A stretch of 54,082 nucleotides of DNA from a virus (Duplodnaviria > Caudoviricetes). The position numbers and the translations under genes were made by a program. The stretch covers positions 1-54,082 of the IMG/VR virus record IMGVR_UViG_3300031653_000003; one strand, 5' to 3'. The notes under the pieces were generated by a model that did no database searches, was not told where the DNA came from, and worked only from the letters and a program-made list of their open reading frames with translations. Shown here in pieces: positions 37,816-52,271 of this stretch. Each line of letters opens with the position of its first letter. Within the stretch, counting starts at the first letter, position 1.

Positions 37816-38805
37816 CTAACTGCCAAATTTTGCCCAGCCGAGGGTCATCATTCCCATTGCCTCGGCCCAGCGCGGGTCGTTAACAACTCTTGCCGGGGCA
37901 TATCTTTGCGCCAGGGTATGGCCTATCTCAATGGCTCCCCCGCCGCCGATTCTAAAATCATTGATAAACGGCATAACGGTTTTTGAGTTCCAAACGCTGT
38001 CGATCAGGGAGAATGAGGCATCAATATATGGAGTAAGTACGTCTTTTACCAGATCGGAGATTGATTCCGGCCCACTAGATAAAAGAATCTGCTTTCGCTC
38101 CATTGCCTTGATCCATTCCTGGGTCGGCATTTCGATGTCATACTTCCGCCCGGCAACATAAGCCAATTCATCCACAGCGTCAAGCAACCCGCCTTCTTCG
38201 CTGTTGGTTTGATCGGTAATAATTCTCCCGGTTTTTCCAACCGTTGCATAGGTTTTATTTCTTCCCCCAAGGCCGAGCCATGCAACCTGCTCGCCATCCT
38301 TTATGCCATCGGCCATCAAAGCAGACCAGCCCTGGATCGTAAACAAGACATTATTTATGTTAACGATCAGCGATTTTTCTCTCTGAGGTATATCCACAAA
38401 ATGAGTCCCCCTCAATACCGAGGCTATATCTTCCCGGTCTTTATAATCCTTGCGGGGTAACCCGGCAACCAGATCAACGTCAACAACGCGGGTTGAATAG
38501 CCAACATGCCGGGCGATAGCATACAAATTCATTGCCTCATAATGGGGGCCGGTATACCATTTCAAACCGCCCTTGCCCCAAATAAAATTGTGGCATTTGT
38601 GTTCCTCGGTACTCCCCCCGACAAACCATTTACCATAATTAGTGGACACCTGCATTAGATCAGGATCAGGAGACAGGAGGTCTTTAACCTCACCCAGTAC
38701 TGACTCAAACTCAAGGCGGTGAGGCTTTCCCGGCCTGGTCTTATAAATGCAAATACTCTTTGTTTGCGTGGTTCCAATATCATTTACGACAATTATATCT
38801 GTCAT
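37816..38805 (-). CDS. parM: ParM/StbA-family actin-like segregation ATPase
   Basis: VNDIGTTQTK (phosphate 1), LVAGLP, QG, GLGG (degenerate phosphate 2), IGGGGA. Start set at MTDIIVVND (38805). Confidence 0.8.
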   Translation of the reverse strand: MTDIIVVNDIGTTQTKSICIYKTRPGKPHRLEFESVLGEVKDLLSPDPDLMQVSTNYGKWFVGGSTEEHKCHNFIWGKGGLKWYTGPHYEAMNLYAIARHVGYSTRVVDVDLVAGLPRKDYKDREDIASVLRGTHFVDIPQREKSLIVNINNVLFTIQGWSALMADGIKDGEQVAWLGLGGRNKTYATVGKTGRIITDQTNSEEGGLLDAVDELAYVAGRKYDIEMPTQEWIKAMERKQILLSSGPESISDLVKDVLTPYIDASFSLIDSVWNSKTVMPFINDFRIGGGGAIEIGHTLAQRYAPARVVNDPRWAEAMGMMTLGWAKFGS

Positions 38806-38939
38806 TTCCTTGCCCTTTCGATTGTTATTATTTGTTAATATTATACAATAATATTCAGGATGCACAAAACATAGTAGAGCGTATTTTAACGGTTTCGCCC
38901 CCTCTTGGGGGGTGAATTCTCCCCACCACCCCCACCTGT

Positions 38940-39674
38940 TTAATTCTCGACAATTGACCAACTGCCGGTATCATCCGGCGGGGTAGGGTTCACGGCCACC
39001 GGAATATCGTACAATTTCCAGAGCAGATGGTTGACGGTACGTAGGTCACCATATCTCTTCGTATTCACCCGGTCTGCTATAATAATTCTATGAGCCTCAA
39101 GGAACGGCCTCACTCGCCGGGCCATAGTCTCGCCCACCGCCTTGGTTTCATTCGCCAATATCAGGTCTTTACAATTGCGCCACGCCCACGGTTTCCCTCC
39201 AGACACGTTGCCAAGTTCATCCATTCGATCATAGGCGTGCCACATCACCAACAAAACCAGATTGGCAAAACGGGTATCCTCGGTATTGGCCCTGCCCACC
39301 GGCGCGGTCTGCGCGGCGAGTTGATCATACCTCATCGCCTCAATTTCAAGCTGTTTTAACTCAACACGGTTCTGTAAAAACATCCCCACCAGATCGGCCA
39401 AAACAAACTTCGCTATCATAATCACAATTGAAACAATAAGCATGGCAACGATGAATTGTGCCACCGCCTCCCCCGGCTTACGCGCACCCAGTTGCGAGGC
39501 AATGAATATTGCGCATCCCCACATCACCGGCAAAAATAAAATAAGCGCACCTGCCCCGGCGAAGATAACGCCTGGCCAATTTGTGGCGTATTGATGAATA
39601 GTCGGCGGCTTGTCGTTTGGTAATACCCCCGGTGCTGTATTTTTCATTTTCCGGGCCATAGTAGACCTGCCCAT
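38940..39674 (-). CDS. Membrane protein (2 TM)
   Basis: Two hydrophobic helices followed by a soluble domain. Confidence 0.55.
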   Translation of the reverse strand: MGRSTMARKMKNTAPGVLPNDKPPTIHQYATNWPGVIFAGAGALILFLPVMWGCAIFIASQLGARKPGEAVAQFIVAMLIVSIVIMIAKFVLADLVGMFLQNRVELKQLEIEAMRYDQLAAQTAPVGRANTEDTRFANLVLLVMWHAYDRMDELGNVSGGKPWAWRNCKDLILANETKAVGETMARRVRPFLEAHRIIIADRVNTKRYGDLRTVNHLLWKLYDIPVAVNPTPPDDTGSWSIVEN

Positions 39675-46830: not shown

Positions 46831-47199
46831 ATGGAAATACCGGAACTGCCGGAGTTATCGTTTGAAGTAACTTATAATCCCGAAACTGAAAACACGGCGA
46901 TTATAACAGAGCTATTATCAAGAGCGAGGACGCAGCATTTCAGGTATAGGCCGAATGGTGATAAATGGTTCCTCGCTGATCTTGAGTTCAAGGGGTGGGT
47001 AAACGAGACAAAAGACGGTACAGATGAGGATGGCAATATACTTGTTGATGTTGGCTTTGAACTTCTCCCCGGCTCATTTGTAGATCGTACAGACCAACGG
47101 CTTTATGCCAGAATCCTCCGGTATCTTTATAGGTTCCGGCGGCTGCAAGGTGCTATTGATAAAGTGGCAGAACTATACCGGCCAAAAGTCAAAACCTGA
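46831..47199 (+). CDS. Hypothetical protein
   Basis: ORF with RBS in the early operon. Confidence 0.55.
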   Translation: MEIPELPELSFEVTYNPETENTAIITELLSRARTQHFRYRPNGDKWFLADLEFKGWVNETKDGTDEDGNILVDVGFELLPGSFVDRTDQRLYARILRYLYRFRRLQGAIDKVAELYRPKVKT

Positions 47200-47201
47200 A
47201 T

Positions 47202-47229
47202 TTTACAATCGGACAAAAACGAGTATAAT
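47202..47229 (+). promoter_or_regulatory. Sigma70 promoter for the DIP1984-RNA unit
   Basis: TTTACA-16-TATAAT. Confidence 0.65.
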
Positions 47230-47276
47230 GCTATTACGTAGCATAAAATTATTAACTATTAACGGAGGATATTCTA

Positions 47277-47588
47277 ATGTCTCAAAAAATTAAGTTGGCA
47301 GAGGCGCTCTTGCGCCGCAAGGAATTACAAAACAAGGTTGACCAGTTGCGTCAAATCCAACGCGACATGTTGTCTAAAATGGTATATAAGCGGCAAAAGG
47401 TTTCCGAGGATTTTGACGACATTGCGGCGCAGATTCCTACCCTGGAAGCAAACCAGGTAACGGCTGAATATGACCACTACGCCAAACAATTACGTTTGGT
47501 TGATGCGGCTATTCAGCAAGCCAACTGGACAACTGATATTGAAGTTGGCGTTACCGTAATGCAGGACTACAAGGCCGAAACCGAATAA
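47277..47588 (+). CDS. DIP1984/DUF6847-family coiled-coil protein
   Basis: KLAEALLRRKELQ N-terminus and AKQLRLVDAAIQQANWTT C-terminus; GGAGG RBS. Confidence 0.8.
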   Translation: MSQKIKLAEALLRRKELQNKVDQLRQIQRDMLSKMVYKRQKVSEDFDDIAAQIPTLEANQVTAEYDHYAKQLRLVDAAIQQANWTTDIEVGVTVMQDYKAETE

Positions 47589-47595
47589 TTAAATT

Positions 47596-47950
47596 ATTGC
47601 CGGGTTGATAGTGGTAACAATCGCGTTGGGGTAAAGGCTGCTCGGTGCCTTAAACCGGAGGGGAAGGCCTACCCCGTTGCAACTGAAGCCGAACAGTAAA
47701 ACGGCCATAAAGCGGTACTTGATGTCACTGGTTCAAATCCAGTTAGGAGCGATTGTTCCTATAGCTCAGTGGTGAGAGCGCAAGTCCTTAATGTAGAGGT
47801 CGGGACTCTCTTTAAACTCCTGGTAACTCCGAATATAATAATCTTTTACAGATTACACCCGATTGGCCGATTAAGATTACACCCGATGTCCGATTGTAAT
47901 TATTCCGACTAACCAAACCCTGGGGTTGTTACCACTATCAACCCGGCAAT
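47596..47950 (+). ncRNA. Large structured RNA with permuted tRNA-like (YrlA-like) domain
   Basis: Perfect 25-bp terminal inverted repeat; T arm, closed acceptor stem and D arm in permuted order at 47717-47785; CCGA repeats. Confidence 0.8.
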
Positions 47951-48413
47951 TAAGGAAATTCAAAAATGAACACCCAAACCGATCTAAGTGACCTTGAATT
48001 ATCTACCCGGCTGACCGTAATGCTGGACTCCAGAATTGCCATAAAGCGGCTGGCAGATCAGCAGCCGAGGGACTCGCTTGAGAGAGAGTTGTACCTGGCC
48101 GAGGCCGAGCGATTGGCCGATGAGGCGCGGGAATTGGAAGCAATATTGAAATTGTTAAAAGTGGGGTGATGAGCTAATGTTGTTCATACCAAAAATTAAG
48201 CCTAAATTACGATGTGTTATTTTGGGACACGTATACAAATTTGATTGGTGGGGCTATCCGGTTGACTGTCCGGTTTGTGAACAATGTTTATACATAGGTG
48301 GAGGCTGGCCTAGTCTGAATTTGCAGCGCCGGGGCAGTGGAATTTATTGGAGGATCAGAAGCGCAATGAATCTCTTATTTGAAAGCGATGAGATACCGTT
48401 TTAGAAATTTAAG

Positions 48414-51126: not shown

Positions 51127-51534
51127 ATGAGACTATGGCACCCCCTTATGATCCCCCACCTCCCCCACCGGCAGCTACAAAGCCAGCATTGCGAAATCTG
51201 CGGGATGCGCGGCAACGGCTGGGGTAAGCCCCACGCGACGGTGGACTATGTATGGCAATATCCGCCGGGCTACCTATACCGGTATCACGTGCGGGTGATG
51301 GATGAACTAATCCGGCGCGGCGTGAATGTTGACCTCAAGTGGTACGATAAACGATACCGGGGCCGCAACTGTAAGCCGTGGATATTTACCGGCCCAGAGA
51401 ATGACTACCCGGAACATAACACCGTCTACCTGGCAGAGTGTATCCTTAATCTAATGAGCGGCGAGAGGCCGGGCGGCGGGCGTAAAAACAAGGTGCTTAA
51501 CCCACTGTTGGACGGGGTGGGGGTGATGCGATAG
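51127..51534 (+). CDS. TIGR02328 / pyrimidine-dimer glycosylase-like protein
   Basis: MRLWH...LP..QL..QH.E...RGNGWGKPHATVDYV...YPEHN..YL.EC..NL. Confidence 0.8.
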   Translation: MRLWHPLMIPHLPHRQLQSQHCEICGMRGNGWGKPHATVDYVWQYPPGYLYRYHVRVMDELIRRGVNVDLKWYDKRYRGRNCKPWIFTGPENDYPEHNTVYLAECILNLMSGERPGGGRKNKVLNPLLDGVGVMR

Positions 51535-52271
51535 TGCAATATTTAGGTGGCAAGTCCAGAACGGCAAAACAAATCGGCGCGTATCTTAACGCCATCCGTA
51601 AACCAGGGCAACCATACTGGGAGCCGTTTGTCGGGGCCGGGTGGGTATTAGTACAAATTGCGGGCGGTGACAAGTTCGCCAGCGATGCAAATGCGGCCCT
51701 GATTGAGATGTGGAAGGCTCTGCAAAATGGATGGGTGCCGCCGGATAACGTGACAGAAGCAGAATACAAAAAAGCTAAGGACGGGGAAGGATCGCCAGAG
51801 TTACGGGCATTTATAGGGTTCGCGTGTTCTTATGCTGGTAAGTGGTTTGCCGGATATGCCAGAGACAATAGAGGACAAAACTATGCAAAACAGAGTTACA
51901 ATAGTTTACTTGAGAAATCAAAACACATTTACGGTGTCAATTTCTTTTACGGTAACTTTTTAGAGTGCTATATTCCGGCCCGGAATTGTCTTATTTATTG
52001 TGACCCGCCATATGATGACACAACCGTTTATGGTGCAACGGGTAATTTTAACACCACTCAATTCTGGCAGCGGGTGCGCTGGATGGAAGAGCGCGGTCAC
52101 ACTGTTATCGTGTCAGAGTATGAAGCGCCTGATGATTTTAGCATCGTATGGGAGCATCGTACTAAAACCGATATGCACACCAAGAACGGGAAAGACCCAC
52201 GTATTGAGCGGCTTTATAGACTTGGCAATCACAGCAAGATTAACCCAACGTTGTTTGATCTTATTGGATAA
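51534..52271 (+). CDS. Dam-like (D12 class) N6-adenine DNA methyltransferase
   Basis: YLGGKS, EPFVGAG, YCDPPY, VSEY. Confidence 0.9.
   Translation: MQYLGGKSRTAKQIGAYLNAIRKPGQPYWEPFVGAGWVLVQIAGGDKFASDANAALIEMWKALQNGWVPPDNVTEAEYKKAKDGEGSPELRAFIGFACSYAGKWFAGYARDNRGQNYAKQSYNSLLEKSKHIYGVNFFYGNFLECYIPARNCLIYCDPPYDDTTVYGATGNFNTTQFWQRVRWMEERGHTVIVSEYEAPDDFSIVWEHRTKTDMHTKNGKDPRIERLYRLGNHSKINPTLFDLIG

Follow-up and report, generated by a model that had tools for sequence, protein, structure and literature searches.

A phage RNA family linked to DUF6847 genes, with a tRNA-shaped module in a variable slot

In bacteria and phages, large structured RNAs with several conserved elements of tertiary-like appearance have seldom been found, and new biology has come with each new class. 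Here we analyse an RNA of 355 nt in a viral record of 54,082 nt (IMG/VR record IMGVR_UViG_3300031653_000003, Caudoviricetes), the whole of which is called the window. The RNA adjoins a gene of the DUF6847 (DIP1984) family and contains a circularly permuted tRNA-like module, and we file it as a non-coding RNA that would combine a tRNA mimic with a protein partner of its own. Both gene and RNA had been pointed out in an earlier note made from the letters of the window, and the claims of that note are taken up below where the results bear on them.

Several described systems invite comparison. In the two-piece tmRNA, the permuted order is combined with pseudoknots, a tag reading frame and the partner protein SmpB. 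In type III toxin-antitoxin systems, tandem near-identical repeats of about 34-36 nt lie upstream of the gene of an endoribonuclease toxin, with a terminator between them. GOLLD and ROOL are found in the tRNA arrays of phages and prophages; some of them embed a tRNA, and they form multimers through kissing loops (PMC12990946). For the bacterial Y RNAs of the YrlA type, Chen et al. 2014 (PMC4201824) required candidates to lie within 4 kb of the Ro60 gene and on the same strand, and the YrlA 5' motif GNCGAAN0-1G is described there as resembling the GGUCCGA contacted by Ro60. In the parts of the literature covered here, no description of a DUF6847-linked RNA was found and the pairing of gene and RNA is apparently new; the RNA may figure among the approximately 8,500 IMG/VR candidate RNAs of Fremin et al. 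2023 (PMC10690425).

A strand-specific RNA family beside DUF6847 genes

The gene in the window (47277..47588, + strand) encodes 103 aa and belongs to the family that the earlier note had named, according to the PF20935 (DUF6847) profile, which matches it with E = 4.8e-9 and 36.8 bits against a cut-off of 27, over profile positions 63-141 of 141 (the C-terminal 79). The RNA follows on the same strand. It is closed by an inverted repeat of 25 nt (47596-47620 with 47926-47950) whose arms are 305 nt apart and 100% complementary, just as had been described. The repeat begins at the 8th base past the stop codon, so that 7 nt separate the stop codon from the terminal helix P1.

Loci of the same kind were collected by a protein-based scan of viral contigs, which gave 58, and by a scan of one genome per prokaryotic species, which gave 9 more, for a total of 67. 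The nine prokaryotic loci are in metagenome-assembled genomes (MAGs) or genomes of Pseudomonadota, Planctomycetota, Bacillota, Acidobacteriota and Latescibacterota. With the window RNA alone as the nhmmer query, 42 of the 58 viral loci were recovered at E < 0.01, and the match adjoins the gene in all but L024, where it is upstream. A profile of the 3' domain of the RNA matches 64 of the 67 loci as well as the window, always on the strand of the gene and always adjacent to it. The RNA is mostly 3' of the gene; it precedes the gene in L024, L044 and L063, and in L011/L013, L027, L029 and L046 it is several hundred nucleotides away. The three loci missed by the profile (L055, L057 and L058) have the most divergent proteins (31-47% identity). 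After the gene they still have the pseudoknot, the palindromic hairpin and a module that is a tRNA or resembles one, and their 3' part differs and is without CCGA repeats; in these loci protein and repeat may co-vary. The 3' part of L058 holds purine-rich CUAAGAAA repeats.

In the converse direction, a DNA pattern derived solely from the RNA was run over viral contigs. Of the 28 stretches returned, 23 are true RNAs and five are chance matches, four without a profile match and one a (GAATGACC)n tandem repeat. All eight true RNAs on contigs that had not been reached via the protein have a DUF6847 open reading frame (ORF) immediately upstream on the same strand. The view of gene and RNA as a unit, already expressed in the earlier note, is thus borne out from both sides. 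The (GAATGACC)n array among the chance matches (L078:4885-4949) lies on an unrelated viral contig, directly past an ORF stop codon.

No other neighbour is shared among the loci. The largest real gene cluster is present at 17 of 75 loci, in a count that excludes the DUF6847 gene and the two shadow ORF clusters antisense to it (38 and 19 loci), and the genes found nearby encode polymerases, clamp-loader-like and RecA-like proteins, RecT, SSB and exonuclease. Since no other neighbour is conserved, the conserved unit consists of the gene and the RNA, placed in varied early or replication contexts. Taken together, these sequence comparisons establish an RNA family that is strand-specific and nearly obligately linked to DUF6847. 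By tblastn, carriers were also located in 13 records of cultured Vibrio phages, namely 1.264.O and members of the PS32B/PS35B series. Two of these records were examined; both are Zobellviridae, with the RNA in an unannotated gap of 300-370 bp after the gene. Because it is present in cultured phages, the gene-RNA module is directly testable.

The arrangement in the window also bears on the possibility of an element working in cis, that is, a 3' untranslated or intercistronic element that serves as an RNase III site, an mRNA stabiliser or an antitermination RNA for DUF6847 or the downstream replication genes and has no function in trans. The 7-nt gap, the lack of a terminator-like site both between gene and RNA and after the RNA at the window locus, the next ORF beginning 16 nt past P1, and the location in early or replication gene blocks would all suit such an element. 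However, the loci where the RNA precedes the gene or is several hundred nucleotides off do not, the downstream genes vary from locus to locus, and an element of 250-440 nt that includes both a pseudoknot and a repeat array is more complex than known processing sites. We consider a role confined to cis distinctly improbable.

Fold, repeat array and tRNA-shaped module

The RNA region measures 250-440 nt across the family. A 367-nt stretch of the window folds with a predicted energy of -131.8 kcal/mol, compared with -101.5 +/- 6.2 for its shuffles (z = -4.89), and none of the 100 shuffles was as good. All elements of the fold are on the + strand. The inverted repeat extends to a P1 of 27 pairs with one G-U, in which the 5' strand 47596..47622 pairs with 47924-47950. 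P1 is followed by an asymmetric internal loop, GCGUU (47623..47627) opposite GG (47922-47923), whose GCG is nearly invariant in the family (in the alignment, positions 28 and 30 do not vary and position 29 is conserved to at least 90%). A K-turn at this loop was considered and dropped by eye, because its register conflicts with the tandem G-A rule. P2 pairs GGGG (47628..47631) with CCCU (47918-47921), and the 3' end of the element, 47918..47950, consists of this P2 strand, the GG and the P1 3' strand, as read from the alignment pairing and the inverted repeat. Inside P2, stem S1 pairs AAGGC (47634-38) with GCCUU (47647-51) and stem S2 pairs UCGGU (47642-46) with ACCGG (47654-58). S1 and S2 interleave, and therefore the region 47634..47658 reads as an H-type pseudoknot. 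The next hairpin, P4 (GGGG/CCCC, 47660..47675), has an 8-nt loop with the self-complementary centre GGCC (47666-47669). It is followed by a GUUGC junction and a hairpin region (47676..47716) with a conserved CAGUAAA motif, seen by eye in most aligned members. After the tRNA-like module, a linker and hairpin region (47786..47827) leads to the repeat array. In relatives this region repeatedly shows a loop motif of the CUUUAAA / ACUUGAAA type, which is a tentative reading by eye, and RNAalifold gave no consensus pairs for this region.

Most of these helices are marked by compensatory changes. RNAalifold on 18 full-length members returned 27 pairs in P1, P2, one pseudoknot stem and the hairpin, of which 26 have compensatory double changes, so that both conservation and compensatory changes, which the earlier note had asked for beside homologous genes, were seen. 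By helix, such changes were seen in 13 of 13 P1 columns (the same 18 sequences), in three of the four P2 pairs (columns 36-39 with 408-411), in 6 of 6 pairs of the P4 stem and, as both-side changes, in 5 of 5 pairs of S2, where 82.9% of the cells are paired. As S1 is out of register in the alignment of the 5' domain, the tool counts underestimate its pairing; its variants still pair (AAGGU/ACCUU, AGGGC/GCCCU and AAGGG/CCCUU, and by eye AAGCA/UGCUU and AAGUG/CACUU). For the structure named by S2 and P4, evaluated on 42 distinct 5' domains, 82.1% of the cells are paired compared with 60.0% in shuffles (none of 500 as high), and only 33-47% once the partners are displaced by 1-3 columns; for covariation the structure scores 0.572, against 0.209. 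The excess of G-U pairs over A-C mismatches (43:12 and 38:10) points to the strand of the gene as the functional one.

The third part of the conserved core, besides the pseudoknot and the palindromic-loop hairpin, is an array of six CCGA units over about 90 nt (47828..47915): UCCGAAU (47828-34), CCCGAUU (47858-64), GCCGAUU (47866-72), CCCGAUG (47882-88), UCCGAUU (47889-95) and UCCGACUAACCA (47904-15). None of the three core elements had figured in the earlier note. The array includes one exact 14-nt direct repeat (47850-63 and 47874-87). Across 46 sequences the 3' domain is conserved in primary sequence, with units such as AACUCCGAAUA, CCGAYUGACCGAYU and UCCGACUAACCA, and RNAalifold on the same 46 sequences gave 0 conserved pairs. 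The repeats face strictly one way, inside P1/P2: in 62 unique loci, the interval from +400 to +799 relative to the gene start has the YCCGAHU unit 135 times forward and 2 times in reverse.

A small protein gene beside an RNA with short direct repeats recalls the toxin-antitoxin pairs of type III, in which case the protein would be the toxin and the repeat RNA its antitoxin, a possibility that had been raised for this locus. It does not survive the comparison, because the features that define the type III family are lacking here. The units are imperfect, about 12-25 nt long and set inside a larger fold, not tandem units of 34-36 nt, and the only exact repeat, of 14 nt, occurs twice. The RNA is mostly downstream of the gene with no terminator between them, the protein is modelled as a coiled-coil hairpin and not as a nuclease fold, and the module occurs in Zobellviridae phages. 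PADLOC gave no match of the protein to a toxin-antitoxin family at E <= 1, and its matches to other entries are weak and partial (E >= 0.002). Thus a toxin-antitoxin function of this type is close to implausible.

The permuted tRNA-like module lies at 47717..47785 (+ strand). Read from the sequence, it comprises the 3' strand of the anticodon stem, ACTTG (47717-21), the variable loop ATGTC (47722-26), the T arm (47727-43), a 7-bp acceptor-like stem (TAGGAGC 47744-50 / GTTCCTA 47755-61) closed by GATT (47751-54), TA (U8-A9), the D arm (47764-79), G26, and the 5' strand of the anticodon stem, CAAGT (47781-85). Every element of the permuted elbow listed in the earlier note is thus in its place, and the order (T arm, closed acceptor stem, D arm) is that of YrlA. 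The module also has G15/C48, G18G19 and the consensus of the T loop; it has no anticodon loop and no CCA. The module detector that was used for the whole family recovered it as well. The Infernal tRNA model (RF00005) scored 20.3 and 17.8 bits in two half-overlapping placements, against a gathering score of 29, and ARAGORN reported neither a tRNA nor a tmRNA of plain or permuted order in the window.

To describe the module across the family, 70 non-redundant RNA regions were counted after 16 locus ids that duplicated counted contigs had been removed. There are 17 permuted modules (those that pass all pairing tests of the detector), 20 tRNAs in ordinary order (by ARAGORN), 11 with a T-loop motif that were left unclassed, and 22 without any tRNA shape; some RNAs have two modules in tandem. 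The tRNA mimic, confirmed in the window, is therefore not the core of the element. On the protein tree the four module states need at least 29 changes. This tree (105 columns, 68 rows) is poorly resolved; counting only its well-supported branches, each main class still requires at least 5-6 changes. The tRNA-shaped module is an optional and plastic part, accommodated in a variable slot. Since one scaffold incorporates this tRNA fold with at least three different connectivities, selection would appear to act on the tRNA shape and not on decoding. In the permuted modules the acceptor-like stems are 5-7 bp and the loops 3-16 nt long. The sequences of the acceptor-like and anticodon-like stems differ across loci with their complementarity kept, and because both split stems stay complementary across the 17 modules, the permuted fold is maintained and not a remnant. 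As to its origin, window positions 47724-47780 are about 80% identical over 57 nt to the junction of tRNA-Ile and tRNA-Met in large, T5-like Vibrio parahaemolyticus phages (H14-H18), which hints that permuted modules arose from tandem tRNAs.

The element might instead be a true Y RNA that works with the Ro60/Rsr of the host. It has the module order of YrlA, and the YrlA model (RF02553) matches 47701-47806 over its full length (1-114) with E = 3.3e-4; the UCCGA repeats also resemble the GGUCCGA and GNCGAA motifs (PMC4201824). However, the match scores 29.7 bits, far below the gathering score of 69. The Infernal search advised in the earlier note accordingly gave the YrlA match and no family of Rfam 15 at gathering score in the window. 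For GOLLD, ROOL and the other large RNAs of Rfam there was no match at E <= 10 in 47150-48050 beyond YrlA, tRNA and three chance-level rows. By these searches, the RNA is not a member of YrlA, tRNA, GOLLD or ROOL. At 355 nt it has roughly three times the length of a Y RNA, which agrees with the misgiving already expressed about its length. The GNCGAAN0-1G motif is not matched by the 5' loop of the window, which reads GCGUU, and some relatives have GGCGAA there.

The protein partner of Y RNAs points in the same direction. No TROVE (Ro60), reverse transcriptase (RVT_1) or RtcB match was obtained in the 54-kb record, estimated to be 76% complete, in line with the Ro60 gene having been reported missing, and without an RVT_1 match the RNA does not qualify as a retron RNA. 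TROVE was found in none of the 23 virus records with the module and a completeness of at least 90%, in one of the five bacterial genomes with the module, and overall in one of 39 records and genomes (a bacterial MAG). Because Ro60 is absent from the 23 module-carrying phages, the module does not appear to be a YrlA/Ro60 system, and because it is absent from the phages and from most hosts examined, the likeness between the repeats and the YrlA motif is best taken as resemblance only. We give the Y RNA explanation scarcely any credence. Among 14 named control genomes, DUF6847 was seen in just Deinococcus radiodurans, one of the two controls with TROVE/Ro60.

Another explanation would place the function in the DNA, as an iteron origin, a protein-binding array, a miniature inverted-repeat transposable element (MITE) or the remnant of two adjacent tRNA genes. 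The array is conserved without pairing, replication genes adjoin it, the perfect 25-bp terminal inverted repeat is MITE-like, and the likeness to tRNA junctions of T5-like Vibrio phages has been mentioned. Against this stand four helices with compensatory changes, the excess of G-U over A-C, the strict orientation of the repeats inside P1/P2, and the kept complementarity of both split stems. In addition, P1 varies in sequence and length among relatives at the same spot, the relatives hold one copy each, at a fixed place beside the gene, and no flanking duplication was seen by eye. A DNA-level element is very improbable.

The tRNAs in ordinary order could suggest a supply of tRNAs, or of decoys, against tRNA-targeting defences of the host, with the anticodon-like loop as the active part. 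There are 15 different anticodons in the 20 tRNAs, including UUA, a reader of a stop codon, AAU and AUG; anticodons with A34 are unusual in bacteria. The embedded tRNA with anticodon UUA (L047:2051-2126) would read the UAA stop codon as a suppressor. The near-identical tRNA bodies of L002, L003, L005 and L016 differ mainly at loop positions 33-35 (UGU, GCC, GUC and UGA), and the anticodon loop of these tRNAs may be under diversifying selection. On the other hand, U33 is lost in L003 and L016, the permuted modules, that of the window included, have no anticodon loop, and the 22 RNAs without a tRNA shape keep core and gene. As many members lack the tRNA shape, a decoy cannot be the general function, and we regard this explanation as rather improbable.

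The loop of P4 deserves separate treatment. Its central 4 nt are a Watson-Crick palindrome in 30 of 42 sequences, where about 1 in 16 would be expected by chance. GGCC occurs 13 times and GCGC 11 times, besides GUAC, UCGA, ACGU, UGCA and AGCU, and several of the remaining apices are CCGG or UGCA offset by one alignment column. Because adjacent bases cannot pair inside one hairpin, we read the palindrome as selection for pairing between two molecules, so that the P4 loop is probably an intermolecular RNA pairing site. Such an apex would also be expected of a machine made of RNA only, similar to GOLLD and ROOL, which multimerises and, for example, holds or stores an embedded tRNA, with DUF6847 merely co-transcribed or helping in folding or processing. 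The tRNA embedded in a variable slot and the GOLLD/ROOL precedent (PMC12990946) speak for it; the near-obligate linkage of gene and RNA in both directions, the far smaller RNA and the 22 of 70 RNAs without a tRNA shape speak against it. We regard it as unlikely, though as a rival to be taken seriously.

The protein, the proposed complex and the genomic setting

Apart from the PF20935 match, the protein scores 41.8 bits with NF038048 (DIP1984), which is under the NCBIfam cut-off of 70, and its best relative by sequence in the PDB is 3kdq ('uncharacterized conserved protein'; E = 0.0015). PADLOC and PHROGs gave nothing meaningful for it. The AlphaFold2 model built on 27 sequences has a helix (7-25), a beta hairpin (33-54) and a second helix (58-85), with a mean pLDDT of 77, and its top rows in Foldseek are coiled coils of prefoldin and of the V-ATPase stalk. 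Modelled as a homodimer, the protein reached a median score of 0.45, compared with 0.00 for the best control, and passed the mark, which is met by 20 of 30 solved homo-pairs and by 1 of 23 single chains. The runs agree in at least 92% of the contacts, the partner pLDDT is at least 76, and the interface is made of the conserved N-terminal and C-terminal segments. The model supports, and does not prove, self-pairing as a homodimer. A likeness to the N-terminal arm of seryl-tRNA synthetase in the ESM Atlas (TM 0.74, under the bar; Pfam Seryl_tRNA_N, E = 0.029) is treated as a lead only. In a sample of 151 genomes of one class, two matches were over the cut-off, one of which is the prophage copy, and a search for longer (fused) forms of DUF6847 gave two proteins.

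Our favoured explanation, which we hold with moderate confidence, is a phage ribonucleoprotein in which a coiled-coil protein, as a dimer, is joined with a scaffold RNA that pairs with itself, the two parts moving as a unit. The DUF6847 protein and the ornate RNA of 250-440 nt would be made on the same transcript, and the RNA would be cut from the polycistronic transcript of an early or replication module at the long P1 duplex, which resembles an RNase III substrate. Two RNAs could then join via their palindromic P4 loops, and the protein dimer would bind the RNA, with the multivalent, single-stranded repeat array as its likeliest site, to give a symmetric ribonucleoprotein. The tRNA-shaped insert would be an accessory that stabilises the RNA or engages tRNA-recognising enzymes of the host, as has been shown for the tRNA-like domain of YrlA. 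The location of the loci suggests an early, host-directed or replication-linked role.

Several points weigh against this explanation. The complex of a DIP1984 oligomer with RNA, as the earlier note had it, is deduced here from the gene-RNA linkage and the predicted homodimer, and a Foldseek search of the model against the PDB gave nothing at E <= 0.001 and thus no match to an RNA-binding family fold. The discrete transcript is predicted from sequence alone. Processing by RNase III is proposed from the length of the helix alone, and P1 is much shorter in several relatives, with 11-14 uninterrupted pairs. The covariation counts come from related sequences in a MAFFT alignment. Finally, the P4 palindrome could be a feature of the DNA, and since the array is without RNA structure, it too could in principle act as DNA.

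A more elaborate form of the ribonucleoprotein can be imagined, in which two or more RNAs self-assemble by kissing loops, protein dimers coat the CCGA arm, and the swappable tRNA-shaped display makes the particle a programmable adaptor or decoy against host tRNA-recognising enzymes and tRNA-directed immunity. We put this forward tentatively, as a possibility that is more probably wrong than right. DUF6847/DIP1984, which has stayed uncharacterised despite a solved structure, gains a testable hypothesis because of its near-obligate RNA neighbour.

The remaining features of the window concern the setting of the module. The record encodes terminase, portal, major head and tape-measure genes, and the DUF6847 gene and its RNA are surrounded by a RusA-like gene, a replication-initiator-like gene and a DnaB-type helicase. 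The same phage has a partition-protein-like gene (37816-38958, - strand) and a DNA methyltransferase gene (51534-52268, + strand), and the presence of the former suggests a plasmid-like prophage lifestyle. The dedicated promoter claimed in the earlier note corresponds to a promoter-like site, TTTACA-16-TATAAT (47202..47229, + strand), which agrees with the consensus at 11 of 12 positions and is a candidate by that consensus match alone; a GGAGGA ribosome-binding site (47264-47269, + strand) lies 5' of the gene. A second promoter embedded in the RNA (47811-47839) was dropped, as by eye the sixth position of its -10 hexamer varies in relatives. The -35 region of the promoter (47203-47215) has a 13-nt perfect inverted match in repeat unit 5 of the RNA (47887-47899), which is unlikely by chance within 1 kb. 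An operator overlapping the promoter, as this copy might suggest, was rejected, for a reverse copy is found within 300 nt upstream in just 3 of 62 loci. A 19-nt direct repeat, 89% identical, links the 3' end of the DUF6847 gene (47553-47571) and the ORF downstream of the RNA (48014-48032).

Comparison with known systems

When compared with YrlA, the RNA described here follows the same order of T arm, loop-closed acceptor-like stem and D arm, both RNA ends pair in a stem, a short motif with CGA is present, and a gene for a dedicated protein lies nearby on the same strand. The two differ in that YrlA RNAs have about 80-130 nt against 250-440 nt here and are without pseudoknot, palindromic hairpin and repeat array, whereas the tRNA-like domain here is optional and occurs in several topologies, and the putative partner is a 103-aa coiled-coil protein. 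The comparison means that YrlA-type tRNA mimicry would exist outside Ro60 systems.

With GOLLD and ROOL the RNA shares the character of a large structured phage RNA tied to tRNAs, with a tRNA embedded in a variable region; the loop-loop self-association proper to GOLLD and ROOL has its likely counterpart in the P4 loop. The RNA here is much smaller and has a different core, and we know of no near-obligate protein partner gene for GOLLD and ROOL.

Like the circularly permuted tmRNA, the module has the T arm and the 3' acceptor strand ahead of the 5' acceptor strand, and pseudoknots are present in both. Unlike the tmRNA, its acceptor stem is closed by 4 nt without CCA, and neither a tag reading frame nor an SmpB-like gene was identified here. 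On the protein side, the phage form of DUF6847 and the cellular DIP1984/DUF6847 proteins (PDB 3kdq) are of the same sequence family, the phage form being about half to two thirds of the cellular size.

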